Assembly (NCBI GenBank): GCA_036338695.1
Contig: JAYZBQ010000042.1
Location: 20,696 to 84,695 of the forward strand
Origin: Myxococcota bacterium
GTDB lineage: Bacteria > Myxococcota > UBA4151
Direction: 5' to 3'
DNA: 64,000 nucleotides
Position 1 is the stretch's first letter, and each line of letters opens with the position of its first letter. The translations under genes were made by a program, and so were the position numbers. The notes under the pieces are model-generated. The model made no database searches, was not told the DNA's origin, and saw nothing but the letters and a program-made list of their open reading frames with translations. Of the stretch, positions 12,428 through 51,252 are shown piece after piece.

Positions 12428-12939
12428 TAAGGTTCTCCCGATTGTTCGGCGATGAGTGGCTCGCGCCCTTCATTACAGTATTCCGCCAAGTTTTCCATCC
12501 CGTCACCGTCGTTATCGCAGACGCTAAAGTTGATCTCGGCCGGCTCAAGGTTTCCGAGACATCGCCGCGTGGCGAGCGCCGGCTGGATGACGACGTTCTG
12601 GCGAGGTTCCTCCACCGAGGTCAAATCGATCCGGCCGCCTTGCTGGGCGAGCACCAGCAGCGCGCCGTCGATCAGCACAAAGTACTCGAGCACAACGGAG
12701 CGCTCCAACCCGGCGCTGATCTCATCGCACTCACCGAGCACCCGGTCCTGCTCACGATCGATGGACAACGGGCAGGCGAGCGCATGGCCGCTCACCCGCA
12801 AGCGCGCCCCGGCGTTTGAGAGGTCTCGCGCACACTCAAGCTTGAGAAAGTCAGGGACCGAGACGCCCGTGGTCGCCACCGACGGCGCCCCGCCGCAAGC
12901 GATCATGAGGCCCATGAACACCATCCACCCCGCCCTCAT
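12427..12939 (-). CDS. Hypothetical lipoprotein with a C-terminal Ca-binding DxDxDG motif
   Basis: Start reassigned to 12939 (ATGA overlap). Lipobox MIAC; DNDGDGMENLAE motif. Confidence 0.7.
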   Translation of the reverse strand: MRAGWMVFMGLMIACGGAPSVATTGVSVPDFLKLECARDLSNAGARLRVSGHALACPLSIDREQDRVLGECDEISAGLERSVVLEYFVLIDGALLVLAQQGGRIDLTSVEEPRQNVVIQPALATRRCLGNLEPAEINFSVCDNDGDGMENLAEYCNEGREPLIAEQSGEP

Positions 12940-13499
12940 GGCGACGCGCTCGCGCTGACCGGGACCAAGGTGACGCTGCTCACCGGACGCGCTCGAAAGA
13001 GGGCGTAGGACCCCCACGCGACTCCGGTCACGGCGAGGGTGCCCACCGCAGCGGTCAGCCAGCGTCGGGGCGGTCGCCGCTGCCACCAGGGCGTCGCGAC
13101 GGTTGGCGGAGGCGCCTGAGTGAGCCCATCCCATGGCCGAAGCGCAGGTAAGACCCCGGTCGGCACGTTCAGCACAAAGGGCACCTCGGCTGAGCCGACA
13201 CGCGTCGGGCCGTTGCCGTGCTCATCAAAAACCTCGAAAAAGTAGCGCAGCCCCGCGCGTGCGGGGACCACCGCCTCGAACCAGCCCTTGGCCACCTCAT
13301 CGGGCTCGATGGTCTTCCATTCCTCCGTCTCAGTGCGCACGTAGAGTGCCGCTCCGAACAGGGGCGACTCATCACGCACCTCAAACCAGAGCCGCCAATT
13401 CCCTTGAGCGTCCGCCATCGTCGGCGGCTCGTGCACCACACGCGGAGGGTTCAGGTCGGCCGCAGGCGCAGCCCAAAGGATCAGAGCGAGTACCATCAC
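12936..13499 (-). CDS. Hypothetical exported Ig-like protein with a C-terminal hydrophobic segment
   Basis: Signal-like N-terminus, PPRVVHEPP...LRYFFEVFD..GN beta-sandwich pattern, PWW...TM tail. Confidence 0.65.
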   Translation of the reverse strand: MMVLALILWAAPAADLNPPRVVHEPPTMADAQGNWRLWFEVRDESPLFGAALYVRTETEEWKTIEPDEVAKGWFEAVVPARAGLRYFFEVFDEHGNGPTRVGSAEVPFVLNVPTGVLPALRPWDGLTQAPPPTVATPWWQRRPPRRWLTAAVGTLAVTGVAWGSYALFRARPVSSVTLVPVSASASP

Positions 13500-23303: not shown

Positions 23304-26300
23304 CTACTGGCAGTATTCCGCCTCGTCGATCTCCGCCAACAGCGGATCTTCTTCGTCGTACCAGTAGCGGTTGTACAACCGAACGATACGACAGCGGTTC
23401 GCCATGTAGCGGTTGAGCGCACCATCGACGTCACCGCTCTGCAACTGCTCCATCCCAGCGCGCCACTCGGCGATACCGGTCAGAGCCATCTGATCTTCAC
23501 GGTAATCCAGCTCGTCTTCCTCATCACCGTCGAAGGTGGTGAGGGCGTTGAGGCTGTAGTGCAACGACACATCGAGCATGGCGTACACGGTGTGCGCCAG
23601 CGTGGTGCGCCAGTGCGTCGTATCCACCAACGCGCTCTGGATCTCACGGAAGTAGTCCACGACCTCGACGATGTTCAGGTAACACAAGGTGAACTGGCGA
23701 TCGTTGAGGCCCTGAAGGATCAACTGGTCAGTACACCGGGTCACGTTGCCCATCTTCTCGATGGCGCCTTGGAGCTGGGTGTAGCCCACTCGGCTCACGT
23801 CTCGAGCCGTGCGCAGCTGCTCACGGAAGACCCACTGAAGGAATCGCTGGATCGCAACGGTCAGGCCGATGCGAGCCTCGTCGAGTTCTTCGGCATCCGA
23901 GTCTTCGTTCCCAAACACGCTCATCGCCGTCTGGCGAGTCTCTTGAACACGGGAGTACAGATCGTACTCGAGCTCGTAGAGGTGAGCGAGCAGGTTGTAA
24001 CCGTCACGAGCCCGTGCAGCCTGGACCGAGCCGATGTTGCTCTGACGACCGCTCGCCAGCTGAGCGTTCGCACGGCCGATGTAGTTGCTCCACCACTCGA
24101 GGGCGAGATCGCTCTCGGAGCGCAGCTCCTCCATCGTGCTGACATACATCGTCATCTCACCCAACATCGCCGAGCCGATGTCCTTGGAGAACGTCGACAG
24201 GACCCGAGGACCGTCGTTGCGACGGGCAAGCAGCAAGGTGTTCGCTGCGTTGACCGCACGGCTAAAGCTCGGGCTCCAAGCGATCTGACGATCACGGAAA
24301 CCAGGCCCAGCGTTTTCACGAGTTCGTGCGTCCCAGTAGCCGAGCGACTCGGTCAAGTGCGTCACCGTGCTGTTGAGGTCATCTTCGTAGTCCTCGCCAC
24401 CGGCACCCTCGAGCATGGTTTCGACCCGTGCTTTCACGTCGACCAGGCTGCTGCGGTAGTCACGCAGCAGGAAGTATCGGTCGGTCGTGTTCACGTTGCC
24501 CGCGAAGTCACGAATCTGCAGCCGCAAGCGGTGCTGGTTCGTGCGGTCGTCGTCGAAGGTCCGCAGTCGAGCCATGTCGAGATACGGACGTTCGTTCGCC
24601 GTCACGCAGATCTCGGAGCCTGGCACGCAGTCCAGACCCGACACCTCACGCGAGCCAGTGATGAGCACGCCACGACCACGGACCGTGTGCCGAAGCAGGT
24701 TCGCCTCACCGCCCCACGGACGGCCTGGGTCACCCGGGTTCAAGATCATCGTGATCGACTGAATACCCGAACGCTCGTCGTTCATCGTCACGCCGCCCAA
24801 GTCGAGTCGGTTCCCGACGAACTGGCGCAGGAAGGTGTCGACATTGTCCGGATCCACGGCGTTGTTGATGAGCTTCTCGAAGTCATGCGTTGGCGCAATC
24901 GTGTCGATGCCGAAGCTCAAGTCCGGTATGAGCGCAAACTCGTCACAGTGCCAGACCATCACGTAGCCGCCGATGTAGTTCCCGTCCTCGGCGAAGATAC
25001 CGGTGAACAGGTTCTGATTCGGCTGTTGGATCACGCGCGTCGGGATCGGGATCCAGTCCCATTGCCCGGTGCGTGGGTCCTCGTTACAGTTCTGGTTACG
25101 AGTCAACAAGGTGACCTGGACCGAGACGTCGTCACGGACGTAGGTGCCCATCTCAACTTCAGCTCCGCCGCTGGTGACGCGCACTCGAGCGGTGAGCGTC
25201 GGGCGCCGCACCTCAACACGCATGTTGGTGCTGCGGCTGTTGCCCTGCGGATCGGCGATCGTCCAGCGCACGGTGTGCACGCGGATGTCGCCTTCCATGA
25301 CGCCGCCTTCGTTCCAACATGTGCCACCCTGATCTTCCGGACCGTCCGGATGCGACTTGGTCAGCGTCAGGCGGTTGTTCGGGTAGCTGTTGTCGAGCAC
25401 GCTCGGCCGCGGCAGGTACGCCGTCACGCAACCATCACGCAGACCCACGATCGCACGCGGCACCAAGGTAAAGGTCGGCGCCGTCGTATCGACGATGCGG
25501 ACCGGGTAGGTGCCCACGGTCATGTTCCCCGAGTCATCACGCACACGGACACGGACGGTGTGGTCACCCACGCCATCCGGGTTCGTCGAGCGAGCGAAGC
25601 GGTGCGTCGCCGCCGAGACGTAGCGTCCGTTGACCAAGGTCTCCTGCGTCACGTCGAGGCGTGCATCGCAAGCATCGGTCGCTTGGAAGTTGTTGGCATC
25701 CGGCGCGTTGGTCGTCAGGTTCTTGAGCGTGACGATCGTCCCAGCGACGCTCTGTGCTTCGACGATCTTAACCGGTCCGCCGCTGTACGCCGGGCGGGTC
25801 GTGTCACGCACGTCGAAGCGCTGGAAGGCGCTGAAGCCTTCGTTGCCCGCCGCATCCACGCCGCGCCAGCGGACGTAGTGCGTACCCTTCTGACGGAACG
25901 CCGACTCGTCCCAAGCCACGCAGCTCTGAGCGACCTGTCGTGGGCAGTAGAACGGCGTCGCCACCAGGCTGATCCCTTCCACAGCGTCGTCGACGCGCGG
26001 GGTACCCAAACGGGCGATCGCGATCCGGCTACCCGCTTGCACGTCCTGCTCGTACACTCGGTACGAAGGAGGCGTCACGCGCGGCGCCGTGCGGTCGAAG
26101 ACGAAGTGGCGAGAGGGACCTTGGATCACGGTACGCCACGGCTGCCCACGGCTGTGCTCCGCGACCACGCGCCAGCAGTAGTAGGTGTTGTCGTTGAGGT
26201 TTGCGATCCTCGCCGTGTGCGAGCCACGCGAGTCGCCCGTTGCGAGCGTCTGCCAGTTACCCCCAGCGCATCCGGTGAACCGGTTGGTCCCAGCTGCTCG

Positions 26301-29300
26301 ATACTGAACCGAAGCGTGAGCGTCCGGCGCCACCGAGAAAGCCAGGCTGGCGGTACGGTTCGCTTTGTCGATCGAGACGACGCGCTCGCCGCTGATCGCC
26401 GGGAACCGGCGTTCGATCCAAGGCGTGCTCGCCTGCCCCGCAAGGTTCGTCGCCGTCATCCGGGTGAAGTACGGCCGCCCCGCCGTGATGGCGTTGCTTC
26501 GGATCACACGGTTCCCCGTGCCGGTGTTGCGAACCTGACCGGCGTTGTCGGTCGCGATCACGTTGTTCGTGGTCGGCGCAGCGACCTGCGTGACCACGCC
26601 CACCGTGGTGTTCGGCTGCATCGACCAGGTGACCGTACCGGTGCTCCCGGCTTTGACGTACGGACCGTCGACTTCGTACCAGTCGACGACCGTGTTTCGG
26701 TCACCGCGTCCGAGGCCGTCCGGATTCCCGCCACAGCCACCGCACCAGTCGTTGTCAAAGCGAGCGCGGAAGGTGTGACGACCCGCCGTGACGTTCGCCA
26801 CCACCTGAAGCTCGTTGAAGTCAGACTGGCTCGTCGAGAAGAGCTCTCGCCGACCGATGCTCTGCCCATCGAGCTCGAAGGTGAAGTGTGCGTTCTCGGG
26901 GCCTGCCTGCGTCGCGGAGGCGCGCAGCTTGAAGACGTACTGTCCCTCTTCAGGCGCCGTGAAGGTGTAGACACGACCGCCCGCGCCGCACTGGTGAATG
27001 TTGCCGTTGACCGGAGTACATTCGCCATCACCTGCCGGGAGCGTCTCAATCTGGACACGGCGTTGTGTTGCGTTCGCCGTGGCAGCGAGGCGCACGTCGT
27101 TGCGCAGGATCCTCGGGATCAGCTGCAGCTCCGGCGTCACCACTGCGCCAACACCGGTTCCGGCCGTGTTCTCGGACTGGACACGGACGCAGTAGGTCGT
27201 GCCTCGAGTCAAGCGGGTGAAGTTGTGGGAGATCGACGTCGCCCGACCATTGGTCCGGTACGCCGCATGGAACGCCCCACCAGCGCAGGCGTTGCCGCCA
27301 CCGCCACGGTAGATACGAATCTCCATGTCACCCGGTACGTGCGAGCGACCTGAGACCTGCATCGACGCTTGCGGGTGGTTCAGCACCGCAGTGACCCCGC
27401 TGACGCGCGGTAGTTCTTCTTCGTACCGCGGGTTGCGCATCGAGACGACGGCACCCGACGAGACCGCTGCCGGCAACAACCGACCGTTGAGGTTCACGCT
27501 GTTGTTGCCCGAGCTCATCCCCTGCTTGACCCATCCGCCGCCACGGAAGCGGGCGAAGTGGACATCACGATAGCGGTAGATGATGTGGTTGCGACCGCGA
27601 ACGAAGACCGTCTGGAACTCGACGCGCGAGCCATTCGCACGCTCACGGCAGTCCCAGCTGATGATGAAGCGTTCCGGCGCGCCGCGCAGGTGCTTCCACA
27701 TCAACCGGTTGCAGTAGAGGTTCGCAAACATCGGCGCGATCAGGTTGTTGGGATCACCCGGGCTGCCGAAGTTGGCTGGTGCGGTGTCGACGCCAATGTT
27801 GGCGCCGCCCATCGACATCCAGCCGTCGGTCGAGGCGACCAAGCGGTTGTAGATGGTGCCGAAGTAGATGAACTTGAACGGTAAGCCGATGTTCACCGTG
27901 CGGTCGTCTTGATTCACGATCTGGCTCGGGCGCAGGTCAGCGATGTTGTCCCAGCCGCGCGAGTTGTTGATCGTGGCGGTGTAACCCGCCGACGAGACCG
28001 TCGCCGCGAAGGCGTCGACGTTCGCAGCCTGGGACACCGAGAGCGGTCCGTTGATCGCACGCACCTTCACGCAATGCGTCGTGCCCTGGCTGACCGGCGC
28101 CGTGCGCCAGTCTAGGAAGCCTGCGTTGCCGGTGCGGTTCGCGATACGCGATCCTGAGCAGTTACCGCCCGATGCGCTGCCGCGGTAGACCTCAGCCTCC
28201 CAGCTAGCAGCATGACGGAACTGCGAGGCAAGGTGGATGCCCATACCCGCTTGGTTACCCGTTCCTTGGAAGAAGGTGATCTGCGGGTAGTGCAACACGA
28301 ACTCGGTGCGCAGCGAGCGCCGATCACCGCCCGTATTGAGCCGCAGGATGATGCAGTAGTGGTAGCCGCGCGCGACCGACCACGTGCGGTTCATGCTGCC
28401 TTCGCTCGGGAAGGAGCTGCTCGCCTGCAAGCCCTGCGTGTTGTTGCAGCCACCGTTTGCCGGCGAACCACCGCGGTACAAGTGCACCGTGTACGCCGAG
28501 CTGTAGGTCCAGTCAGCCGTGACATTAATACGGCCGCTGTACTGGTTCACGCTCGCACGCATCCACTGAATCTCGGGATTAAACAGGGTCCCCAAGTTGG
28601 TCGTGCGTACATCTTGCCCCAGCGCCAAGCGGGCGCAATACTGATAGCCACGCCGAATACCGGGTGTGTTCCCTGGCGTGAAGGTGTAGTCCAAGCTGCT
28701 CTGACGGTTCCAGGCGATCGGCACGACCTTGATCGGCCCGCCCGTGCAGTTGCCGTTACGATACAGCGACAGGTTGGCGTCGGCTGCGGCGTATCGGCGC
28801 CAGCGGGCGCGGACCGTAAAGCTCGCCGCTTCCTGGTTGATGCTGCCCGTCAGGCTGTGCGGTGTACCGCGACTGCTACGTACCATATGTCCTGCGACTC
28901 GGTTTCCGCCGTCGCGCGTCACCGCCTGCAAGCAGTAGTTCGTGTGCCGCGCGATGCGTGGCCACGCGTTCGTGTTCGTAAACGTGCGGGTGAACGAGCT
29001 GCTCGCCCCATAGCGCTGCCGGAACACCTCCTGGCCGTTGACACAGCGACCGTTCGAGAGCGCGCCGCCTTTGTACAAATACATATCGATCGGCGCCGCA
29101 AAGCTCGTGTTCACCTGAGCGCGAAGCTGTGGATAGTCCGGGTTGATGGCGTCAAGCCGCACATTCGTGAGGCGAGCGTAATCCACGACAGGCGTCATCC
29201 AGGCGTGCTGATACTCACGCCCTGGCCCACGATAGTTGACCAAATGAACGCAGTAACGATGCCCGCGGTACAAGCCGCTAAAGTCGTAACTAAACGACGA

Positions 29301-30359
29301 TCCCGAGAAGTTAACCTGCCAGTAGCTACCATAGCCAGACCGGACGGGGTGTGAGTAGTCACGGCACGCGTTGCCGCTCCCGTGCGAGTAGGTCCGCCCG
29401 CCTCGATACAGCCGAACGTAGCCGGACGACGGCCTGTCGAGGTTGATACGCACCCTGACGGTCGCTCGCGGTCCATCCACGGATATGTTCCTGCTCGTCA
29501 CCCTGTTTCCAAGGATCGGCGAGGTCATGCCCGACCAAACCGTTCTATGACCGCCATCGAAGTTGCGTATGTGTACGCAATATCTTTGCCCCGAGTAGCG
29601 ACCATCTGACGACCACCCTAGACCGCCAAAGGTCTGGTTGATGCTCGAACTTGTGGTCGTCCAAGTCTGCCTGTGCGAGCCACGGTGACAGTAACCGCCC
29701 GAGGCTGACCCGCCACGGTATATGTAGACCCTTGAGGTGGGATCTCCATAACCCGCAGTATAGTAGTGTCTGTACGCCTGCTGATATCTCTGTTGGTACG
29801 CCTCAAGGTAGCGCTCGCGGTAAGCCACCCTAACACGCACCTGGCGCCTCCTAAGCACCGCCACGTAGACACGCCGGAGCTCGCGCCGGTAGCCCCAGCT
29901 CCAGTAGTAGTACCAGTAGCAACGCGTGTAGCAGTAGGTTCGCCAACCGCAGCGACGCCACCACCAGCCACCCCAGCAAGAGTAGCGGCGGTAGCAGTAA
30001 CGGTAGCAGCGGTAGCCACGTCTCAGCACCCGGTAGCGAACGTACACCCAGCGATACTGCCACTCATAGGACCAGTAGTACTGCCAGCGGTATTCCCAGC
30101 GGTAAGACCAGCGATACGCCCAGCGGTATGCGGTGCGATACGCCCAGCGATAACGGATCTCGTAGTTCCGCTTGGTACCCCGGTTGAAGTTGTACCGGAC
30201 ATTAAGCCGCATGTTGTGTTGATCATGACTAACCCGGACGCTGCTAATATTCGGCGCAGGCTCCCACCACCACGCGTCCGCATCACCCGCCCAAAGACAG
30301 ATCACAAACGCCGCCGCTATGGGTGCGCTACGAACTATCGATCGTGCCAAGTTAACCAT
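23304..30359 (-). CDS. Giant (2351 aa) secreted multidomain protein: about 8 Cys-bridged Fn3-like repeats, NIDO-like and CBM60-like modules, HYR/Ig-like repeats, an acidic helical C-terminus and a Y/R/W hairpin insert
   Basis: Start reassigned to ATG 30359 (RBS GAGGAGG). Signal peptide ...GDADA|WWW. Repeats (I/L)YRGG..C...(Y/H)C; NIDO-like IGLPFKFIYFG...STDGW...IAPMFANL; CBM-like GRHTFRARFDND...DRNTVVDW; repeated DTTAP/ATDACD. Confidence 0.85.
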   Translation of the reverse strand: MVNLARSIVRSAPIAAAFVICLWAGDADAWWWEPAPNISSVRVSHDQHNMRLNVRYNFNRGTKRNYEIRYRWAYRTAYRWAYRWSYRWEYRWQYYWSYEWQYRWVYVRYRVLRRGYRCYRYCYRRYSCWGGWWWRRCGWRTYCYTRCYWYYYWSWGYRRELRRVYVAVLRRRQVRVRVAYRERYLEAYQQRYQQAYRHYYTAGYGDPTSRVYIYRGGSASGGYCHRGSHRQTWTTTSSSINQTFGGLGWSSDGRYSGQRYCVHIRNFDGGHRTVWSGMTSPILGNRVTSRNISVDGPRATVRVRINLDRPSSGYVRLYRGGRTYSHGSGNACRDYSHPVRSGYGSYWQVNFSGSSFSYDFSGLYRGHRYCVHLVNYRGPGREYQHAWMTPVVDYARLTNVRLDAINPDYPQLRAQVNTSFAAPIDMYLYKGGALSNGRCVNGQEVFRQRYGASSSFTRTFTNTNAWPRIARHTNYCLQAVTRDGGNRVAGHMVRSSRGTPHSLTGSINQEAASFTVRARWRRYAAADANLSLYRNGNCTGGPIKVVPIAWNRQSSLDYTFTPGNTPGIRRGYQYCARLALGQDVRTTNLGTLFNPEIQWMRASVNQYSGRINVTADWTYSSAYTVHLYRGGSPANGGCNNTQGLQASSSFPSEGSMNRTWSVARGYHYCIILRLNTGGDRRSLRTEFVLHYPQITFFQGTGNQAGMGIHLASQFRHAASWEAEVYRGSASGGNCSGSRIANRTGNAGFLDWRTAPVSQGTTHCVKVRAINGPLSVSQAANVDAFAATVSSAGYTATINNSRGWDNIADLRPSQIVNQDDRTVNIGLPFKFIYFGTIYNRLVASTDGWMSMGGANIGVDTAPANFGSPGDPNNLIAPMFANLYCNRLMWKHLRGAPERFIISWDCRERANGSRVEFQTVFVRGRNHIIYRYRDVHFARFRGGGWVKQGMSSGNNSVNLNGRLLPAAVSSGAVVSMRNPRYEEELPRVSGVTAVLNHPQASMQVSGRSHVPGDMEIRIYRGGGGNACAGGAFHAAYRTNGRATSISHNFTRLTRGTTYCVRVQSENTAGTGVGAVVTPELQLIPRILRNDVRLAATANATQRRVQIETLPAGDGECTPVNGNIHQCGAGGRVYTFTAPEEGQYVFKLRASATQAGPENAHFTFELDGQSIGRRELFSTSQSDFNELQVVANVTAGRHTFRARFDNDWCGGCGGNPDGLGRGDRNTVVDWYEVDGPYVKAGSTGTVTWSMQPNTTVGVVTQVAAPTTNNVIATDNAGQVRNTGTGNRVIRSNAITAGRPYFTRMTATNLAGQASTPWIERRFPAISGERVVSIDKANRTASLAFSVAPDAHASVQYRAAGTNRFTGCAGGNWQTLATGDSRGSHTARIANLNDNTYYCWRVVAEHSRGQPWRTVIQGPSRHFVFDRTAPRVTPPSYRVYEQDVQAGSRIAIARLGTPRVDDAVEGISLVATPFYCPRQVAQSCVAWDESAFRQKGTHYVRWRGVDAAGNEGFSAFQRFDVRDTTRPAYSGGPVKIVEAQSVAGTIVTLKNLTTNAPDANNFQATDACDARLDVTQETLVNGRYVSAATHRFARSTNPDGVGDHTVRVRVRDDSGNMTVGTYPVRIVDTTAPTFTLVPRAIVGLRDGCVTAYLPRPSVLDNSYPNNRLTLTKSHPDGPEDQGGTCWNEGGVMEGDIRVHTVRWTIADPQGNSRSTNMRVEVRRPTLTARVRVTSGGAEVEMGTYVRDDVSVQVTLLTRNQNCNEDPRTGQWDWIPIPTRVIQQPNQNLFTGIFAEDGNYIGGYVMVWHCDEFALIPDLSFGIDTIAPTHDFEKLINNAVDPDNVDTFLRQFVGNRLDLGGVTMNDERSGIQSITMILNPGDPGRPWGGEANLLRHTVRGRGVLITGSREVSGLDCVPGSEICVTANERPYLDMARLRTFDDDRTNQHRLRLQIRDFAGNVNTTDRYFLLRDYRSSLVDVKARVETMLEGAGGEDYEDDLNSTVTHLTESLGYWDARTRENAGPGFRDRQIAWSPSFSRAVNAANTLLLARRNDGPRVLSTFSKDIGSAMLGEMTMYVSTMEELRSESDLALEWWSNYIGRANAQLASGRQSNIGSVQAARARDGYNLLAHLYELEYDLYSRVQETRQTAMSVFGNEDSDAEELDEARIGLTVAIQRFLQWVFREQLRTARDVSRVGYTQLQGAIEKMGNVTRCTDQLILQGLNDRQFTLCYLNIVEVVDYFREIQSALVDTTHWRTTLAHTVYAMLDVSLHYSLNALTTFDGDEEDELDYREDQMALTGIAEWRAGMEQLQSGDVDGALNRYMANRCRIVRLYNRYWYDEEDPLLAEIDEAEYCQ
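30045..30152 (-). repeat. Degenerate 12-bp tandem repeat (TAY CGC TGG NNN) x9 encoding (Y-R-W-x)9
   Basis: Translation YRWA YRTA YRWA YRWS YRWE YRWQ YYWS YEWQ YRWV. Confidence 0.85.
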
Positions 30360-30396
30360 GTCTCTCATCCTCCTCTTTGCGCCTACCGCTAAGCGC

Positions 30397-31773
30397 CTAA
30401 GGGCAATCTGCCGGGATGCGGCAATGCCCTTGAATACCTTGTCCGTTCGCCACACAGCATGAGCCTGCGAGCTCATTGGTGCAGGTGGCTTGATTCTGCG
30501 TCACGCAAGCGAGCGTGCAGTACCATCTCGTGGGGTCATCAACACCCTGCAAGCACACCCCGCCACGCTGCTGACACGCCATGGGGTTGTTGCGAAACTC
30601 TGTGCAATCCGTGCCGATGAAGACACGCGGCCCAGCATCGTCGGGAGGCGGCGTTGCGTCAAAGGCGCCAAGATCCGGAATAGGACCGTAATCGAAGTTT
30701 GACGCGTCCGGCCTTGGGCCCTGACCAAAATCTGGAATCGGTCCGTCAAAGCCTGGAGGCAGAGTGTCGCCGATGATCTGAGCATCTGGCAGCGGCGGGG
30801 GCGGCGCGCCGTCTGGACATTCCCGAGCGTCTGCACACCCAGTACCCCACCAACCCATGTCTGGCTGAGGACCTGCGTCCTCGTTAAACCAACCGTAATC
30901 CGGGCGCGGCCCAATGTCCGCAGGCGGTTCGGCGTCTGGGAAGCCCAGATCCGGCAAGCCACCCTCGGGCGGGCCTTGATTGCCAATGTCTGGAAAGGGA
31001 CCCAGGTCCATCATGCCAGCATCCGGAGCCCAGAGGTCATCCACCGGAACGTCTGGCAACCCACCGTCAGCGTTGCCGATGTCGAGCCGCGCACCGTAGT
31101 CGGGGATACCGCCGTCGGCGAAGCCGTAGTCAGGAAGACCGGGACCATCAAAAACGCCCACATCGTTGTAGCCGCCAAGGTCCATACGTCCCGTATCGAT
31201 CATCGCAACATCGCCCGTGTCCCAGACCAACACATCCGGTAGCGCATCCACGTCGCGCCCGAGCATGAACTCCCCCGTGGTGTTGATGGCGGCCACGAAC
31301 TCGCCGTCAACGTAGGTCGACTCCACGGACTCCCACAGCTCACCGGCTTGGCTTCGATGCCACACCTTATAGCGCGCCAGCTCACCGACATCGAAGTTGT
31401 CCGGAACAACGATCGTGACCGTCGCCTCAACCGTGAGGCTCATGAAGGGGCGGACTCGCCACCCGTTGCCCTGGTGCACCACACCGACGGTTGGCGGGTT
31501 GTCCCAAACGGGGAAGGTATCGATAAGGCAATCGATCTCGTCGATACTGTGATACTGGATCCGAAACACGCCGCCCGCCGCAGCGCAGGCCTTGAAACCT
31601 GCGTCGTTCGCTCGGTTCCGCGGATCCGGCTCACCAGCAGCGACACAGCTACCGTCTCGGCAAATATACCCCGGACGGCAGTCTCCAGCGCCGACACACG
31701 TCCCTGAGCTGCCTACTGTGCAGCCTGCTCCAGCACCTAACATTGCGCTCAACACCACCAGATTGCGCAGCAC
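30397..31773 (-). CDS. Cys-rich lipoprotein with a ZU5-like domain and a long acidic P-D-x-G repeat linker
   Basis: Lipobox GAGC. N-terminal C-x5-C-x4-C-x4-C module, more than 15 PDxG/DxG units, C-terminal Cys-rich module. Ends 37 nt upstream of the giant gene. Confidence 0.75.
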   Translation of the reverse strand: MLRNLVVLSAMLGAGAGCTVGSSGTCVGAGDCRPGYICRDGSCVAAGEPDPRNRANDAGFKACAAAGGVFRIQYHSIDEIDCLIDTFPVWDNPPTVGVVHQGNGWRVRPFMSLTVEATVTIVVPDNFDVGELARYKVWHRSQAGELWESVESTYVDGEFVAAINTTGEFMLGRDVDALPDVLVWDTGDVAMIDTGRMDLGGYNDVGVFDGPGLPDYGFADGGIPDYGARLDIGNADGGLPDVPVDDLWAPDAGMMDLGPFPDIGNQGPPEGGLPDLGFPDAEPPADIGPRPDYGWFNEDAGPQPDMGWWGTGCADARECPDGAPPPPLPDAQIIGDTLPPGFDGPIPDFGQGPRPDASNFDYGPIPDLGAFDATPPPDDAGPRVFIGTDCTEFRNNPMACQQRGGVCLQGVDDPTRWYCTLACVTQNQATCTNELAGSCCVANGQGIQGHCRIPADCP

Positions 31774-32009: not shown

Positions 32010-35000
32010 CTACGGCGCGCTGACCCCGTAGAAGACGTCCTTGTCGTCTTCACGGTTCGCCCGCTTCTCCCAGACGGCGTGAATCGCGCCCCCCGGATCC
32101 ACAGCTGCGCTCGGCTTGTAGTCGTCTTGCTGGTCGTTGTCCTCGCCGTCGCGAGACTCAGTCATCACGACCACAGCCGGCTGCTCTCCGCCACCATCAT
32201 AGCTGCGATCGTAACGCCGTAAGACGATGTCCTTGTCGCCGCCTGCGCCGCGCGTCGGCGCGTCGGTTTGCCAAATCACCGAGACGGTCTGCGTCGTCAT
32301 GTCGCCTTCGACGCTGTGCACCACGATCTCCGGGCGGCGGTTAGCCGCGGTCGTGAACTCATCGCCTGCCGACGCCAGGAACGCACCTTCACCGTCCGTG
32401 CCACTCGTAAACGGAGCGCCCTGCTCGGTGTAGGCCCAGCGTACCGCTGTATTTTGACCGGCGCCACAACCGCCCTCAGCTAGCCACGCCACGTAGGCTC
32501 GCCCGTTGGGGTCCTCGGGATCAACAGCGACCACAGGGCTCGAGGTCTCCCGGATCGGGAACCCGTCCTCATCAAGGTTGCCCGCCTGACCGCAGTTTCC
32601 GTTGACCAACAGCGCCTCATTCCCAACGCCCGTATTCACGTAGAGGATGTCCACGTCATTCTCAGCGTCGCCGTCGAGGTCGCCATCATCTTCCCACACG
32701 ACGTGCGCAGCGCCTGAACCGTCCATCGCGATGTCCGGCTTGTCAGCGCCGTCTTCGCCGCCAGCCGTGTTGTCCGAGATGATCTGAGGCGTCCAAGCGC
32801 CTTCTTGGCTGGTCGCTAGGTACACCTCATACGCGCGCCCGGTGTTCTCGGACTGCGTGTCCACAACAAAGACGACCTGCGGCCCCATCGAACCAACGGC
32901 GATGCGCGGGTAGGTGGCGTCCATGCCAGAGATCCCTTGGGAAGTCAGCGAGGTGACATCCCCGAGACCGCCCTGAGCCTGTATAAACCCAGCCCAGCAA
33001 ACACCCGGCGTCTCAGGACTCTGCGGCTGCGGCGTCGCTCCCGCGTTGTTGCAGCTTGTATCGGAGATCGTTGGCGCTGTACCATCCCACGTCGTGTAGA
33101 CGACATTGGCTGATCCGTCGCGTCCACCGACACGCCCGGAGTCCGTCCAGACAAAGTGCCCGACCCCGTTTTCGTCGACGGCGACGTCCGGGGTGCTCCC
33201 ATTCGCCGAGTTGCGGACGTTGAGGATCACGGGGTCGCCCCACGTCCCATCCTCACCCAAGTGAGCCGCAGCGATCAACTCCATCTCACAAGCGTTCAGC
33301 CCGATACAGGTTTCCCACGTCGCGTAGACATCACCGTTCGGACCCACGCCGATGCGCGGCACCTGCGAGTTCCAGCTGTCTTGCTCGTTTGAGACGATCA
33401 ACGGCTCGCCGCTGCGGAACACAGCGATCTCGGAGCGGGTCTCCGTCCCTAAGCCGTCCGCTGCCACCACCCAGAGTTCGATACGAGCACCCTCTTCCGG
33501 GATCTGAATCACGCCAGTGTAGCGGCCGTCGTCTTCACCGGTCGGCTCAAGCGCCACGCCGTCACCTTCGCCGATTCCGACCCGGACGCTGTCGACGCCA
33601 TTGTAGGCGTCATACGCCTCCACCACGACGTTCGTGGCGCCCGTGTTGACCCACGAGTTCGCCCGGGGAGTGATCCACGTCACCACCGGGCCGGTGTTGT
33701 CCACGTTGAACAGACGCGCCGGGTTGTCTTCCTCGGCGGAGACGTTGCGCGCCATGTCGATCGCCGACAGGTAGATGTTGTTGTCGCCCTCAGCGAGGTC
33801 TACCGTCAGGCAGAACGCGCCGTCTGCGTCAGCGCTCCCCGAAGCCTGCGCTTGAATCACGCCGCCGGTGTCGGTGTTCTCGAGGCTCACCTCAGCATGC
33901 GGCTCCGTCGTCCCGCAGACCTCAATCGAGGCACCCGCCGTCGAGGTGGCATCTTCAGCGATCGGATTGCCGTCTTCATCTTTGTACACCACATCGGAGA
34001 AGGTTGGCGGGGTGAAATCCGTCGTAACCCACACATGCCGCTTACGCGTCTCGCGCTCACCTAAGACCGCCCAGACGCGCACGTGCTGAGTGACCTCTGC
34101 CGTGTCATCCGCAGCGTCGCAGGTCGTGCACTCCTTGGTGATATCCTGGCTCCACTGCACCTCATCGATCGCCTCGCGGAACTGCAACTCTGAGCTTCCA
34201 TCGATGCTCCCCTTGACCTCGGCGTCTTCACAGACCACCCCGATCATCGGGTACATCGAATAGCGATCATCGCCGGCGCCACCGACTAAGCTTGTCCAGA
34301 CACACAGACCAGCCTGTTCTTCACCGTCGACCGTCTTGGTGCAGTCCTTCTCGCTGTACTCGAGCGGTCGATTCTGGCGAATATTTCCCTCGCCGTCATA
34401 GGTCCGGTTGGCGATCGTCAACTGGCAGCCTACGTCATCGTAATCGACCTCTTTCGAGATCGGCGCCGAGCGCACATTCTGGGCGGTGACCGCAAAGAAG
34501 GTGAAGTTGTTCACATTCCGCGCTGGGTCGTCGGTGGTCTGGAGGTTCGCTCGCGCTTCCCAAGTCGTCGCCGCGTCTGGCGCCACAAGCAATGCATCGA
34601 CCACGACCTCGCCCTCAACCTGCTGGACCATGTAGACGCCAGTACCAGCCGGCTTGGTGCCGCCCCAGGTGATGCTCTGCTCTGCATACACAAAGACATC
34701 GCTGACCTCCGGAGCCGTGACGGTCACGGGATCCGGACGTACGGCGAGCAGGATCTCTACGCGTGTCTTTTTGCTTTTGTTGCCCGCGTTATCCACTGCG
34801 CGCAGCTCGAAGCTGTTCATCCCTTCAGCGAGCGTCACCTCGAAACTGAACTCGGTGGTCTCATCGAGCGGGGTCACCTCGGTGTCGCCGTTGTGGACCG
34901 CAACGCTGGCCTGCTTGATGCCAAAGATCGTGACCACGTCAGCGCAGCCGTCCGCTTCGCATTTGATCACGACGGAGGGCACATCCGGCGATACGATCGG

Positions 35001-35099
35001 CGCTTCGGGCGCCGAGTCATCGACCGTGCTATCGCCGCAGCCTGCGACGAGGGCAAATGGTGAGATCATTAAAGACAGCTTTAACAGGCGCCAGTTCAT
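32010..35099 (-). CDS. Large acidic lipoprotein with Ig-like repeats and a C-terminal beta-propeller
   Basis: Start reassigned to 35099. Lipobox VAGC; repeated L.EG.N...L.A.D.AGN.S Ig motif; repeated P.(I/V)AVD..G..H.VW blades. Confidence 0.8.
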   Translation of the reverse strand: MNWRLLKLSLMISPFALVAGCGDSTVDDSAPEAPIVSPDVPSVVIKCEADGCADVVTIFGIKQASVAVHNGDTEVTPLDETTEFSFEVTLAEGMNSFELRAVDNAGNKSKKTRVEILLAVRPDPVTVTAPEVSDVFVYAEQSITWGGTKPAGTGVYMVQQVEGEVVVDALLVAPDAATTWEARANLQTTDDPARNVNNFTFFAVTAQNVRSAPISKEVDYDDVGCQLTIANRTYDGEGNIRQNRPLEYSEKDCTKTVDGEEQAGLCVWTSLVGGAGDDRYSMYPMIGVVCEDAEVKGSIDGSSELQFREAIDEVQWSQDITKECTTCDAADDTAEVTQHVRVWAVLGERETRKRHVWVTTDFTPPTFSDVVYKDEDGNPIAEDATSTAGASIEVCGTTEPHAEVSLENTDTGGVIQAQASGSADADGAFCLTVDLAEGDNNIYLSAIDMARNVSAEEDNPARLFNVDNTGPVVTWITPRANSWVNTGATNVVVEAYDAYNGVDSVRVGIGEGDGVALEPTGEDDGRYTGVIQIPEEGARIELWVVAADGLGTETRSEIAVFRSGEPLIVSNEQDSWNSQVPRIGVGPNGDVYATWETCIGLNACEMELIAAAHLGEDGTWGDPVILNVRNSANGSTPDVAVDENGVGHFVWTDSGRVGGRDGSANVVYTTWDGTAPTISDTSCNNAGATPQPQSPETPGVCWAGFIQAQGGLGDVTSLTSQGISGMDATYPRIAVGSMGPQVVFVVDTQSENTGRAYEVYLATSQEGAWTPQIISDNTAGGEDGADKPDIAMDGSGAAHVVWEDDGDLDGDAENDVDILYVNTGVGNEALLVNGNCGQAGNLDEDGFPIRETSSPVVAVDPEDPNGRAYVAWLAEGGCGAGQNTAVRWAYTEQGAPFTSGTDGEGAFLASAGDEFTTAANRRPEIVVHSVEGDMTTQTVSVIWQTDAPTRGAGGDKDIVLRRYDRSYDGGGEQPAVVVMTESRDGEDNDQQDDYKPSAAVDPGGAIHAVWEKRANREDDKDVFYGVSAP

Positions 35100-35277
35100 A
35101 GGAAACGCTCCAAGGCCTAATACCATTGGGGTGGAGTTTGTCAGGCGAAGTCCCGACGCGCAACCCATCCCGTGATGTCGTTGTGAACCAGTGAGCGACA
35201 TGACGCCGACAAACCTTTAGCTCGAAAGGTCACGGCGAGTCCTTCACGAACGCTCTTGTCTTCAGTACATCTACCCT

Positions 35278-47510: not shown

Positions 47511-48088
47511 GGCGACGACGCCTGATTGACGATCTGTTGATGGGTCAGCAGCTCACTGATCTGCCCGTCCCGAAAGCGCACCTCTGCGATGCGTTCGAGC
47601 CCAGGACGCTTTCGGCAAGGCGGTAAATCCAACACGCGCCAACGCTCGGCGTCACCACCGACCGGCTGAAAGCAGCCCAACCAGTAGCGCTCGAAGTCGG
47701 CTCGAAACGAGCCGACCTGCAGCGCTTTCATCCAGATCGCCTCAGTCGGGTCTGCGCTCGCTAGTTGAGGCAGCGCCTCTTCGCCGGCGCCGTCAAAGAC
47801 ATCCTCAGCGCGCAGCGCCTCCTCCTCGATCGGGTTGCGCGCTTGCGTCCTGCGGATGCGCGCCGCCAGGGCGATCGCCTCATCGCGCACGGTATCCGGC
47901 CCCTCAAACTGGTCCAGCGCACGTAAAACCCGCGCAACCTCCTCGCCATGCAAACCGCTGACGAAGTCCTGCTTGATCGCCGCGGAGTACGCCGTCCTGA
48001 TGTCATCGAGGCGCCGCTGGGCTTCGCCCTCGTCGGCACAACCAAGCGCCAACGTGAGCAGGGCGAGCGACAAGAAGCAGCGGCGCAT
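47507..48088 (-). CDS. Hypothetical lipoprotein following pilY1
   Basis: Start 48088 (TGATG overlap with the pilY1 stop); lipobox ALGC. Confidence 0.7.
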   Translation of the reverse strand: MRRCFLSLALLTLALGCADEGEAQRRLDDIRTAYSAAIKQDFVSGLHGEEVARVLRALDQFEGPDTVRDEAIALAARIRRTQARNPIEEEALRAEDVFDGAGEEALPQLASADPTEAIWMKALQVGSFRADFERYWLGCFQPVGGDAERWRVLDLPPCRKRPGLERIAEVRFRDGQISELLTHQQIVNQASSP

Positions 48089-51000
48089 CAGTACACTTCG
48101 CGCCAATGCATGATCAGGTTCTTAGGCCGCGACTGATTCGGCTGCGTCTCCGGGGTGGCGTTGTTGTTGAATCCGTCCACAGGAACCAGCTCGACCCCGG
48201 CGTTGGTGACACGTCCCAAGGTCTTGAGCTGCCCCGAGTTGTAATAATACAAGCGCCCGTCCGCTAAGAAGGTTGGCGGCGCAGGCTCGGAGGAGCAGGT
48301 GGTCTCGCGCGGATCGCAGATGATCTCGTTGCAGGTCTCGGTGCAGGTATCGAGGTCGACGCAGCGCATCCGCTGGATCGCGCCGGCGCAGCCTCCACCC
48401 CCTTGAACCGTGGTGTAGATAGCGACCCCTTTCGAGACGATCGGTGATGAGACCGCGTACTCCTGCGCTCCCAGTCGTGCGTTGCGAGCTCGCGTCAGGT
48501 CGCACCCGGCGCGCAACGCCGAACCACGTGGGTCGCGCGGCTGCTGCTCTCGCAGGACGCGCACGGTCCCGCGCCGCACCGGCCGGCCTTGCCCCCCGAC
48601 GTCGGCCGCCGTTGCGATCAAGTTGAACTGGGCTGCGTCCCGCTCGCGCATGTCGATAACCGGCGCGCCTAGCTGCGCTCGGCGGCCCAAAAGACCGTCA
48701 GCGCCTGTACGCTCCGTCAAGCGCCACGCCGCGCCGTCCGTTCGCCCTCGCCCGTGCAGATCGAGGGTCAACATCCGCCCGCTGGTGGTCCCGACGTATG
48801 CAAGGTCGAGCGCCCCGTCGCCATCACGATCGATCGCTGAGACGTCGGTCATGATGCCCTCGCCGCGGAACTGCGAGAGCACGTAGCGATGCATGACCCG
48901 ACCGGTCGTCAGGTCCACGACCATCACCGCCGGCAGATCCCGGCACCAATCTTTCGGACAGCCAGCACCTCGCGGGTATTGTCCGTTTCCGATGCCCGAC
49001 GCGACGATCATCACCGGCTTAGTCCGGTCGCCGCCAATATCCACATAGCCCACGGCGGGGGTCGAGTGGACCTCGCCGAGGAAGCGATCGCCAAACTCGA
49101 ACACCGGCACGGGCTCGAGCGGCTTGGAGACGTCCAAGACGACGATCTTCTTCGCGCCCACCGCCGGGCAGATAAGCAACGACGACCAGCCCCCGCGTTC
49201 TTCGGCTTGCTCGAGGTTGAGCTTGGCTTCAAAGGCTCGGCAGCGCCCGTTCATCAGGCTCGGCTTGTCACCACGAAACCCTGCAAAGTCAGCCGTAAAG
49301 ACATCTCGTAGCAGCTTGTGGTTGGCGCGCGGCAGGTAAGCCCACGCCTCCTCGCCCGCCTCATGCGTCTGGCGCTGGGGCGCAAAGCCGTCAGCGCTCG
49401 ACGCGTTCAAAAAGAAGGCGTGGATCAGGTGCCCTGCACCGACATAAGCCATGGGCGGATTACCGCCTACGACCGATGCGTAGAGCTTATAGCTTGCGTC
49501 CGTATCTTGGCGCGTCGTGTTACGACCAAAGCGCGGCGTCACGGGTGAGCTGTGCACTAGCGGGCCCAGCTTCCAGACCCCATCGTCGTCGATAAACCCA
49601 CGGCGCTTATCCACGATCTCATCGCCCACGCGAGCATCCGGCTGGGTCGTGTCGATGTGGGCGCCGCGCAGCTTCATGATCATACGCGACATGGCGACGC
49701 GCCGGTCATAGTCGTCGCTTGCGTTTCCGTTCTCGTTCAAATCGGGGACATCCCAACAGCGCGCATTGTTGGGCGCATTGAGCGGACAACGAAGGTCGAA
49801 TGAGCGGTACCACTGCATCCGCTCACGCCGCGGGATGGGCCAGATGACCTCTGATCGCTTGAGCGACCCCGTCCGCCAGTTCGCTGGGGGGGTGTCGCTC
49901 TCTTGCACCTCGATCCCCGTGTAAATACGGCGCGGCGTCCGCACGCTCGCCCGCCCAGACCGGTCCGGATAGCTCGTGCGTCGAGACAAGCGCTCGCCAG
50001 CGTCCCAGAGGATGCTCGGATCGCCTCGAAAGGTCCACTCGCCCGAGAACGGCTGGTCCTCATGAAACAAGCGAAAGGCGTACAGCCGACCACGGTTCCC
50101 TGGCTGCTGGACAATCGGCACGAGGATCCCGTTATCGACCACACGCCCCACGTCACTCGGGACCGTCCACAGCGTCGTCACCTCTGCTCGACCGCCCTGG
50201 TACTCGCCGCTCAAGGCCGTCTGAACGGCATCTTCGAGGACATTGTGGAGCTCCTCAGGGGTTCGCGCATAGAGCGCTCGACCCACATTGTTGTTCACGA
50301 CGTATGGCATCGTCGGGTGAATCGCCTGCCCGCCCGTGCGCGCCAGCGCATCGAGATTGCTGCGCGCCGTGACGTTGAGGTAGTGCGGACCAAAGCCGAC
50401 CACGATGGTGTCGGAGGCAGCGACACCGAGCGAGCGGCTCCGGTTCTGGCTGATCGTATTTTGAATCTGCGAGACGCTGTTGTTCGCGGTCGAGCATGTG
50501 CTCAAGCCCCGGTGGTCCCAACTGTCCGTGATCAACATCGTGAAGTGCTTGCGACATTGCTCATCCGCTGCCGAGCCGCGCTGCACGTTGCGCTGGTGCA
50601 CATACCGAGCCGCCATCATCATGCCCTGCACGTTACTTGCGCCCAGCCCGCGCATCTCCACCGGCCCTTGAGCGTCGACCCACGAGACAAACTCGCTGCG
50701 GTTGTTCTCGATCGGTTGCGAATCGACCGAGATGAAGTTCCGCCGGACGTCGCGCCGGTTGAAGTCACCGACCGAGCGACCCCAGCAGCACTGATTCCTT
50801 GAGTTGCACCGGCTGTTACTCCCTTCGGGACCCCACATCGGCAGGCTCTGACGCGCCCCGCGCGGTCCCGCGGGGTAGCGATAATTCGCGGCCTCGGCCG
50901 TCTGCCCAAGGTCTGCGTTCTGCCCCGGCCTCAAGAGGGTCATACGGAGCCCCTCAGCGGTCTCAAACTGACCGCGTAACGCCGTGCGCAGATGCTGCAA

Positions 51001-51252
51001 ACGAGAGCGCCCTTCGCCCAGGCGGCACAGCGTCCGACCCCCACGAAAACGCGGGTTTCGATCGCCGTCACCATAGACCTGGTTGCGCTCAAATGAACCG
51101 CACCAATCGTACGTCATAGAGGCGTGGTTATCGACGGCGATCACGAGGTCGGGCTCGACCGCCTGTTCGACCGTTCGAGGCTTGTAGTCGGCCGAGGCGG
51201 TGCCCGCCGAGACGAGGATGATGATGGCGAGCGCACGAAACAGCATGGTCAC
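48088..51252 (-). CDS. pilY1: PilY1/PilC-like pilus tip adhesin (vWA-like N-terminus plus beta-propeller)
   Basis: WDAGERL, WKLGPLVHSSP, GEEAWAYLP, Ca loop DRDGDGALD; follows the minor pilin genes. Confidence 0.85.
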   Translation of the reverse strand: MTMLFRALAIIILVSAGTASADYKPRTVEQAVEPDLVIAVDNHASMTYDWCGSFERNQVYGDGDRNPRFRGGRTLCRLGEGRSRLQHLRTALRGQFETAEGLRMTLLRPGQNADLGQTAEAANYRYPAGPRGARQSLPMWGPEGSNSRCNSRNQCCWGRSVGDFNRRDVRRNFISVDSQPIENNRSEFVSWVDAQGPVEMRGLGASNVQGMMMAARYVHQRNVQRGSAADEQCRKHFTMLITDSWDHRGLSTCSTANNSVSQIQNTISQNRSRSLGVAASDTIVVGFGPHYLNVTARSNLDALARTGGQAIHPTMPYVVNNNVGRALYARTPEELHNVLEDAVQTALSGEYQGGRAEVTTLWTVPSDVGRVVDNGILVPIVQQPGNRGRLYAFRLFHEDQPFSGEWTFRGDPSILWDAGERLSRRTSYPDRSGRASVRTPRRIYTGIEVQESDTPPANWRTGSLKRSEVIWPIPRRERMQWYRSFDLRCPLNAPNNARCWDVPDLNENGNASDDYDRRVAMSRMIMKLRGAHIDTTQPDARVGDEIVDKRRGFIDDDGVWKLGPLVHSSPVTPRFGRNTTRQDTDASYKLYASVVGGNPPMAYVGAGHLIHAFFLNASSADGFAPQRQTHEAGEEAWAYLPRANHKLLRDVFTADFAGFRGDKPSLMNGRCRAFEAKLNLEQAEERGGWSSLLICPAVGAKKIVVLDVSKPLEPVPVFEFGDRFLGEVHSTPAVGYVDIGGDRTKPVMIVASGIGNGQYPRGAGCPKDWCRDLPAVMVVDLTTGRVMHRYVLSQFRGEGIMTDVSAIDRDGDGALDLAYVGTTSGRMLTLDLHGRGRTDGAAWRLTERTGADGLLGRRAQLGAPVIDMRERDAAQFNLIATAADVGGQGRPVRRGTVRVLREQQPRDPRGSALRAGCDLTRARNARLGAQEYAVSSPIVSKGVAIYTTVQGGGGCAGAIQRMRCVDLDTCTETCNEIICDPRETTCSSEPAPPTFLADGRLYYYNSGQLKTLGRVTNAGVELVPVDGFNNNATPETQPNQSRPKNLIMHWREVY

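Follow-up and report, generated by a model that had tools for sequence, protein, structure and literature searches.

In the secreted adhesin Bap1 of Vibrio cholerae, an aromatic and basic loop (Bap1-57aa) carries a central aromatic motif that enters lipid as a β-hairpin (PMC12965690), and the pseudo-repeats flanking this motif add avidity (PMC12965690; PMC10102183). The loop is described from Vibrio only (PMC12965690). We analysed a DNA stretch of 64,000 nucleotides, hereafter the window, from a Myxococcota bacterium of the lineage UBA4151 (assembly GCA_036338695.1, contig JAYZBQ010000042.1, positions 20,696 to 84,695). In this window the first Fn3-like repeat of a giant, likely secreted and adhesin-like protein is interrupted by an insert of 141 residues dominated by tyrosine, arginine and tryptophan. 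The insert is real, strongly constrained and unusual, and its known range is narrow. It is predicted to be a long two-stranded hairpin with a nested disulfide register that projects from the Fn3-like repeat.

The insert lies on the minus strand between VRYNFNRG and GYGDPTSRVYIYRGG (nt 29754-30176; residues 62-202 of the protein, P0001). An earlier reading of the DNA without database searches (hereafter the sequence-only reading) had described about 140 residues dominated by Y, R and W at 29757-30176, which is borne out with this small correction. Arg (34), Tyr (33) and Trp (16) make up 83 of the 141 residues, and the net charge is +29, compared with +21 and +24 in the two orthologues presented below. 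The insert divides into an outgoing arm, a core and a return arm of 56, 30 and 55 aa. As claimed, the six Cys of the core (residues 157/161/167/176/182/186 in the numbering of the open reading frame (ORF) track; nt 29919-30008) are spaced 3-5-8-5-3, and the three nested pairs all sum to 343. Sister repeats had been said to carry a short loop at this site; in the alignment the insert corresponds to a block of 145 columns that is gapped in all 25 sister repeats chosen from this gene and its relatives. The proposed periodicities held only in part. Six of the nine tetrads of the outgoing arm are exact YRWx units, the other three being YRTA, YYWS and YEWQ, and the four-residue period of the return arm is confined to its proximal ~24 residues, the remainder alternating V and R.

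Both arms alternate strictly at a two-residue step, with the aromatics on one face in one arm and on the opposite face in the other, and the aromatics of each arm stand opposite Arg, Gln, Ala or Glu of the partner strand. When 21 cross-strand registers were ranked by an ad hoc pair score, every odd register exceeded every even one and registers 263 and 265 came out on top (shuffle p 0.0005); the register of the Cys pairs was among these two. Arg and aromatics occupy both faces of the insert. Near the tip there is no Arg-free face in any of the three full sequences, and neither face is aliphatic; each of these sequences has one His and no HxH motif. The palindromic Cys spacing by itself is not rare, occurring in 69 of 3103 six-Cys clusters from the long reading frames of the genome, 48 of them with even steps. 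Chance does not account for the unchanged length and Cys set in both full-length orthologues, together with the two-residue alternation of the arms. A second copy of the insert was not found among the 18750 reading frames of at least 80 aa in the genome, nor was there a match to the insert in PDB sequences, Pfam or NCBIfam.

Runs of YRWx are usually off-frame readings of Thr/Gly/Ala linkers. In viral contigs the motif returned 121 loci (L040-L160), and in 81 of the 92 readable ones a different frame stayed open over the same or a greater length; all 11 matches to C-W-G-x-W-x-W (L170-L180) were shadow frames as well. Such shadow frames are a general pitfall when raw sequence is read. One could accordingly suspect a misassembly, or a Thr/Ala/Gly linker read in a shadow frame, all the more as the database fragments of the gene (P0002-P0008) are frameshifted. 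We assign this explanation virtually no probability. With the arms read in the YRW frame, most nucleotide differences are at third codon positions (38/42, 49/61 and 49/57), both other frames of the same strand contain stops in all three sequences, and two independent orthologues (L030 and L031) are in frame. The stretch or part of it is present in 20 of the 24 listed runs, which are marine and seawater metagenomes. In eight of the 24, independent contigs together cover the insert, with 0-1 differences and without an indel, so that the assembly artefact considered in the sequence-only reading is not supported; the sole change in the insert among the listed run differences is synonymous. The whole insert is spanned by L030 and L031, and by no single contig of the listed runs. 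The orthologues, the codon-position bias and the indel-free contigs rule out an artefact, and the insert is coding. Contigs of the RNA runs X10 and X12 cover parts of it, which, without a silent-stretch control, is no proof of transcription.

The two orthologues were recovered among 68 candidate stretches in a scan of metagenomes and are 83-84% identical. Both keep the length of the insert and all six Cys, and the arm lengths are equal in all three full sequences. The arms (P0001 62-110 and 156-202) differ between L030 and L031 at none of 96 residues, despite a proportion of synonymous differences (pS) of ~0.6. They differ from the window at 5 of 96 residues, as against 28-29 of 177 in the flanking parts of the Fn3-like repeat (p ~0.01). 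Judged by these alignments, the arms are under strong purifying selection and carry fewer changes than the Fn3 parts of their host domain. In the distal zone (P0001 111-155), L030 and L031 have 13 differences in 45 residues, and the other two comparisons give 16 and 17. Between the two orthologues this compares with 6 of 273 residues elsewhere (Fisher p 2.5e-8, for a zone chosen post hoc). Along 1950 residues compared with L030, this zone diverges more than any other 45-aa window, if narrowly (16/45 versus three windows at 15/45). The proportion of nonsynonymous differences (pN) in the tip, 0.22-0.27, lies below the pS of 0.51-0.77, and positive selection is therefore unsupported. The strain-level variants P0004 and P0007 likewise differ in the distal zone. 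The WGGWWWRR tip emphasized in the sequence-only reading is not conserved, as the orthologues read WGSWWWQQ and YGSWRWRR. The net charge of the inner loop is +2, 0 (L030) and +3. The 30-mer core remains net cationic and rich in aromatics, with 11-13 of them kept at charges of +7, +3 and +5, and its summed interfacial hydrophobicity is -10 to -11 kcal/mol across the sequences. Conserved arms and a variable tip fit the comparison with a stalk and its tip that had been drawn earlier.

Searches for further homologues are bounded by the data searched and do not imply absence elsewhere. The N-terminal 261 aa matched one of 41 genomes, namely their own, and a profile of the tip matched three of 401 genomes of the phylum, all of which were inputs to the profile. 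Profile and P0005 searches of the genomes G001-G003 (completeness 92, 85 and 59%) returned nothing credible. Homologues numbered 0 of 534, 4 of 4905 and 2 of 23 candidates in protein-database searches, and five matches were obtained among 1.84 billion representatives; the database matches were frameshifted fragments of close relatives (P0002-P0008). None of 142 viral contigs contained a homologue, the scan of genome contigs matched one of 69, over the C-terminal part only (91% identical), and the ESM Atlas gave no usable match to the insert. P0005, a fragment from a more distant relative, shares the WWWEPAP start and the arm opening YRWAYRTAYR and then shifts into another frame. Its differing arm repeat suggests that further arm variants may exist. 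As far as these sequences go, the known range comprises three full sequences and fragments, all from one narrow clade, and this rarity limits the reach of what can be concluded from them.

Structure prediction with AlphaFold used an alignment of three full rows over the insert and 25 sister repeats, and gave a mean local confidence (pLDDT) of 72 and a predicted TM-score (pTM) of 0.38. A hairpin was modelled from residues 86-131 and 134-179 of P0001 (54-99 and 102-147 of the model), with 46 residues per strand and pLDDT values of 81-95 over 93-172. The register sum of the modelled strands equals that of the Cys pairs. The model of the host domain aligned to Fn3 modules over 84-95 residues with a root-mean-square deviation (rmsd) of 2.2-3.1 Å and Z scores of 8.4-9.5; many Fn3 entries were among the fold matches, tied with other Ig-like sandwiches, and the Pfam fn3 match was weak. 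A long hairpin in nested disulfide register on an Fn3-like base had been proposed from the letters, and the prediction agrees with it in the shared Cys register and an Fn3 Z score of ~9. The proposed rigid ribbon of 20-25 nm fared less well. Some 46 residues per strand are confidently modelled as β-structure, and this part would measure ~15-16 nm at the standard β rise, the whole insert 19-24 nm; 20-25 nm is an upper bound because the proximal ~22 residues of each arm were modelled as low-confidence helices (pLDDT 60-70). A fold search in BFVD gave no match at E 0.001. The prediction of a three-copy complex of the insert scored 0.00 in two runs and was used neither for nor against any reading.

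The insert is carried by a gene frame of 2390 codons on the minus strand. The ORF track starts at 30476; the likely start is at 30359, with GAGGAGG at 30369-30375, 9 nt upstream, and L030 and L031 share this initial Met. Within the protein, the most hydrophobic 19-residue windows fall in the putative signal peptide region, and none later scores higher. No enzyme or toxin family was found above cut-off in Pfam or NCBIfam, and the domains recognized suggest that the protein is adhesin-like. Its net charge declines along the chain, with +31 on the first 200 residues and -17 at the C-terminus, a trend shared by syntenic orthologues in the genomes G004 and G005 (37-47% identity). These lack the long insert and start with PPC-like domains; in the first of these domains a loop is extended by 11 residues, with two Cys around WGWWWFG. 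By sequence, the loop is of similar chemistry at the same protein end. The WGWWWFG loops lie at 12854-12970 (-) of L016 and 12868-12984 (-) of L017, and their wording is near the WFFGW core of Bap1.

Our preferred explanation is that a surface adhesin would use the insert as a stand-off adhesive probe, whose tip would sink into a membrane or an organic film. We hold this reading with about even confidence. In support stand the conserved length, Cys and arms, the β register, the adhesin-like host domains, the steady aromatics of the tip and the Bap1 precedent. The giant protein would be exported by Sec, its Cys oxidised by a DsbA/VKOR-type route, and it would pass the outer membrane via a secretin and be retained by its acidic C-terminal module and/or the lipoprotein-like products of two upstream genes (Table 1). 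The genome (G000) contains three secretins and six DsbA-like matches, and VKOR was present in all three family relatives tested. For the insert itself, the predicted fold is a long ribbon of two strands closed by three nested disulfides, and the outermost Fn3-like repeat would project this stiff ribbon from the surface-held protein. Because the aromatics of each arm lie across from Arg, Gln or Ala in the other strand, both faces may be cation-π ladders that stiffen the free-standing ribbon. By analogy with Bap1-57aa, the Trp/Tyr tip would insert shallowly at a lipid-water or particle interface, without forming a pore, while the Arg/Tyr/Trp shaft would add grip or avidity. The disulfides would pre-form the hairpin that Bap1 adopts only upon binding. 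Variation of the tip may tune the surface preference or reflect a looser constraint. Prey cells may be the target surface because the genome has Kil-like Tad genes: a secretin, an FHA-fused CpaF-type ATPase and a double-FHA gene stand in a row at L185 5446-10052 (G000:C95), where the secretin frame meets the contig end, and there is a further pair of T2SSF-family genes. Secretin/FHA-CpaF/FHA and T2SSF-type features are given for the Kil predation system (PMC8460266). The cluster suggests contact-dependent predation in this 3.4-Mb marine genome.

Several points weigh against an adhesive probe. The AlphaFold model was based on three alignment rows for the insert, had the low pTM given above and reached a mean pLDDT of 71 in two of five models; a single-sequence run produced uninformative helices of low confidence. 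One orthologue has a 12-residue tip that is far less hydrophobic than the others (-4.4 versus -8.1 and -8.4). The core is the most conserved part of Bap1-57aa, whereas here it is the most variable, and a generic glue has no obvious need of arms more conserved than its host domain. The likeness between the G004/G005 loops and the tip was reached by 24-380 of 2000 shuffles in six comparisons, so that homology is not established. Neither DsbB nor VKOR was found in the G000 assembly, which is 93.6% complete.

The variable tip could alternatively belong to a specific-ligand probe, with a constant stalk and an exchangeable tip that recognises a receptor such as a prey outer-membrane protein, lipopolysaccharide (LPS), an algal glycan or kin. 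Differences between L030 and L031 do concentrate in the tip, albeit in a window drawn post hoc, and no other 45-aa window is more divergent from L030. Precedents exist in bovine antibodies, where conservation is higher in the stalk than in the knob (PMC12009342), and in T4 gp37, whose stem-and-tip insertion binds LPS and OmpC (PMC6957217); the genome also has the Kil-like secretin, FHA-fused ATPase, FHA cluster and T2SSF-family pair (PMC8460266). The lead of the tip over three other windows is narrow, however, and pN stays below pS. The listed differences of the eight same-population runs comprise one synonymous change in the insert and no tip variant, and the genome holds neither a diversifying cassette nor a paralogous tip. 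We regard this reading as tentative and on balance improbable. Its bolder extension, also an unlikely one, is a single-chain reach-and-recognise device of a free-living marine predator, similar to an antibody or a phage needle, in which a rigid cation-π ribbon of ~20 nm would rise from an Fn3 loop and present a disulfide-locked tip diversified between lineages for prey or particle surfaces. If instead the shaft does the work, the insert would be a rod that zips onto copies of itself, onto DNA or onto sulfated polysaccharide, and thereby builds a matrix or captures gel particles. The arms, more conserved than the host domain, the net charge of +21 to +29 and the exposure of aromatics and Arg on both faces all suit such a rod, and Bap1-57aa aggregates too (PMC12965690). 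A shaft function has no need of the Cys ladder and the aromatic apex, which are both kept, and in-register pairing across the strands also explains the conservation of the arms; a cohesive rod is a distinctly unlikely explanation.

One use raised in the sequence-only reading was that of a weapon, which would either pierce the membranes of prey in the manner of a tachyplesin-like spear or assemble into a β-barrel pore. A Cys-laddered 30-mer of Arg and aromatics does resemble β-hairpin antimicrobial peptides, capitellacin is non-amphipathic too and yet enters bilayers (PMC7761999), and the Kil-like genes suggest a predator. The top Foldseek rows for the modelled hairpin were pore-state toxin hairpins, but none was significant (E >=0.037, TM <=0.16, rmsd 23-46 Å). 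A pore-forming transmembrane hairpin has one continuous uncharged hydrophobic face across both strands at its tip. The insert has Arg on both faces, unlike the lipid-facing wall of a barrel, it lacks an Arg-free or aliphatic face near the tip in all three sequences, and the charge of its inner loop falls to 0 in one orthologue. It is moreover tethered at both ends within an adhesin-like protein of 2351 aa that matches no toxin family. The piercing or barrel function is thus weakened, and we judge it very unlikely.

Table 1 Features of the insert, the giant gene and its upstream neighbours (positions in the window)
Feature	Position	Strand	Basis
Giant gene, 2351 aa (P0001)	23304..30359	-	Frame, GAGGAGG 9 nt upstream, orthologue starts
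Likely Sec signal peptide, residues 1-29, ends ADA	30273..30359	-	Inferred from sequence and hydropathy scan
First Fn3-like repeat, N-terminal two strands, before insert	30177..30263	-	Repeat alignment, model, fold match
Insert, Y/R/W-rich, 141 aa	29754..30176	-	Sequence, orthologue alignment
Outgoing arm, 56 aa; nearly every second position aromatic	30009..30176	-	Sequence, periodicity
Core, 30 aa, six Cys; predicted three-rung disulfide ladder; inner loop nt 29949-29978	29919..30008	-	Sequence, Cys invariance 3/3, model register
Return arm, 55 aa; V/R alternation distal, Y-x-E/Q-x tetrads proximal	29754..29918	-	Sequence, periodicity
Part modelled as continuous β-hairpin, P0001 86-131 and 134-179	29823..30104	-	AlphaFold model
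Variable distal zone, P0001 111-155	29895..30029	-	Alignment; boundaries picked after viewing it
C-terminal portion of the first Fn3-like repeat, bearing the Cys pair conserved in this repeat family	29511..29753	-	Alignment, model, fold match
Five sister Fn3-like repeats without insert, net basic	28011..29507	-	Repeat alignment, charge
Nidogen (NIDO)-like domain, weak and indirect	27435..27992	-	No own Pfam match; via G057 protein
Seventh Fn3-like repeat	27129..27410	-	Repeat search
CBM60-like carbohydrate-binding module	26634..26933	-	E 7.3e-06, below Pfam cut-off
Eighth Fn3-like repeat, weak	26115..26402	-	Repeat search
HYR / Ig-like stretch	24507..26006	-	HYR E 1e-04
Acidic C-terminal module of no known family; candidate cell-side anchor	23307..24506	-	Sequence comparison; anchor role inferred
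Cys-rich, Asp/Pro-rich gene with lipobox-like N-terminus, upstream of giant gene	30397..31773	-	Synteny kept in L030, L031 and L016
Ig-repeat and BNR-propeller gene with lipobox-like motif, upstream	32010..35201	-	Pfam, synteny kept

The NIDO-like assignment derives from a BLASTP match (E 8e-08) to a region of a G057 protein that itself matches NIDO at 1.9e-17. The acidic C-terminal module is common to several unrelated-looking secreted proteins of this bacterial family. It corresponds to no Pfam family and appears as a mobile unit in 10 of 401 genomes of the phylum, two of the matches being weak. In the giant protein it is terminal, in paralogues it lies centrally, ahead of RCC1-like repeats, and in L036 it is N-terminal and followed by a propeller-like region (loci: window 23307-24506 (-); L018 5124-10109; L036 422-3142; L032 3-8537; G000:C26:69243-70169), and we consider it a candidate for an undescribed anchor or assembly domain. 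In L032 3-8537 (genome G060) the Fn3-like repeat of the giant protein is present ~20 times, arranged in alternating long and short pairs; these copies are acidic, in contrast to the basic repeats of the window. The Cys-rich upstream gene has a long Asp/Gly/Pro-rich spacer between Cys-rich ends and no Pfam or NCBIfam match. Elsewhere in the window, a gene at 4830-7724 (-) combines an adenylate/guanylate cyclase with NB-ARC and TPR domains in a low-GC island (~0.50-0.55 versus 0.63); it is perhaps an acquired STAND-type signalling or defence candidate. A 1054-aa gene at 48088-51252 (-), with a weak match to the PilY1 propeller, lies upstream of OmpA and glutathione synthesis genes.

A literature search at the level of abstracts, with few subscription journals covered, returned no description of such a protein or insert. 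The sequence-only reading had stated that no bacterial protein of this design is described. This holds only in part, since Bap1-57aa of V. cholerae shares the insertion, the chemistry and the hairpin predicted here. Among the other known systems, the ultralong CDR-H3 of bovine antibodies is likewise inserted in a loop of a β-sandwich, and its stalk is conserved while its end, which contains Cys, is diverse (PMC12009342). It measures up to 70 residues with strands of ~11, compared with 141 residues and at least ~46 per strand here, and its knob has diverse disulfide patterns, whereas a fixed, predicted ladder would continue the ribbon in all three of our sequences. Moreover, its host is an antibody V domain with somatic diversity, and ours is a single bacterial gene. 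The needle of T4 gp37 comes close in proportions, its insertion 882-1009 having two stems of ~50 residues and a receptor-binding tip of ~28 as against 56+30+55 (PMC6957217). It is a trimer with His-coordinated iron, whereas the insert has a single His, no HxH motif, and uses Cys. The β-hairpin antimicrobial peptides tachyplesin, capitellacin and arenicin (PMC7761999) share nested cross-strand Cys pairs (predicted in our case) and a composition of aromatics and Arg with the 30-mer; they are free peptides of ~20 residues cut from precursors, while the insert is tethered by two conserved arms and its charge is not conserved. The hairpins of β pore-forming toxins (PA pore, lysenin and aerolysin) are long, two-stranded and of similar length, and appeared in the weak Foldseek rows; the insert gave no significant match to them and has no lipid-facing face and no toxin scaffold. 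If the model holds, the insert would be a free two-stranded β-ribbon several times the length of the bovine CDR-H3 stalk, outside of any barrel or trimer. It would then offer a simple sequence code for stiff single-chain nanorods, in which aromatics on opposite faces are paired with Arg, Gln or Ala, and a natural scaffold with a swappable, disulfide-locked tip.

The closest functional analogue is probably Bap1-57aa. Both are loops inserted into a β-domain of a secreted adhesin from an aquatic bacterium (PMC10102183; PMC12965690), enriched in aromatic and basic residues, with a central aromatic motif, pseudo-repeat flanks and a hairpin (predicted for the insert), and both are gained or lost as a unit among homologues. 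The insert is 2.5 times longer than the 57 aa of Bap1 and sits in an Fn3-like host instead of a β-prism or β-propeller. It has six invariant Cys, whereas the main text of PMC12965690 does not contain the word disulfide. The WFFG core and the repeat consensus WbpKpnmY of Bap1-57aa occur in none of the three inserts, while the G004/G005 loops read WWFGW and WWFGY. In Bap1 the core is strongly conserved and takes up its fold when it binds lipid (PMC12965690), whereas the tip described here is variable and predicted to be pre-folded. The insert would thus work most like Bap1-57aa, yet it does not appear to be a member of that family. It offers a way to test how attachment to particles or prey is brought about in uncultured planktonic myxobacteria, and if the analogy is true, the principle of Bap1, described as restricted to Vibrio, would extend to a marine lineage unrelated to it, in which wet adhesion would be convergent.

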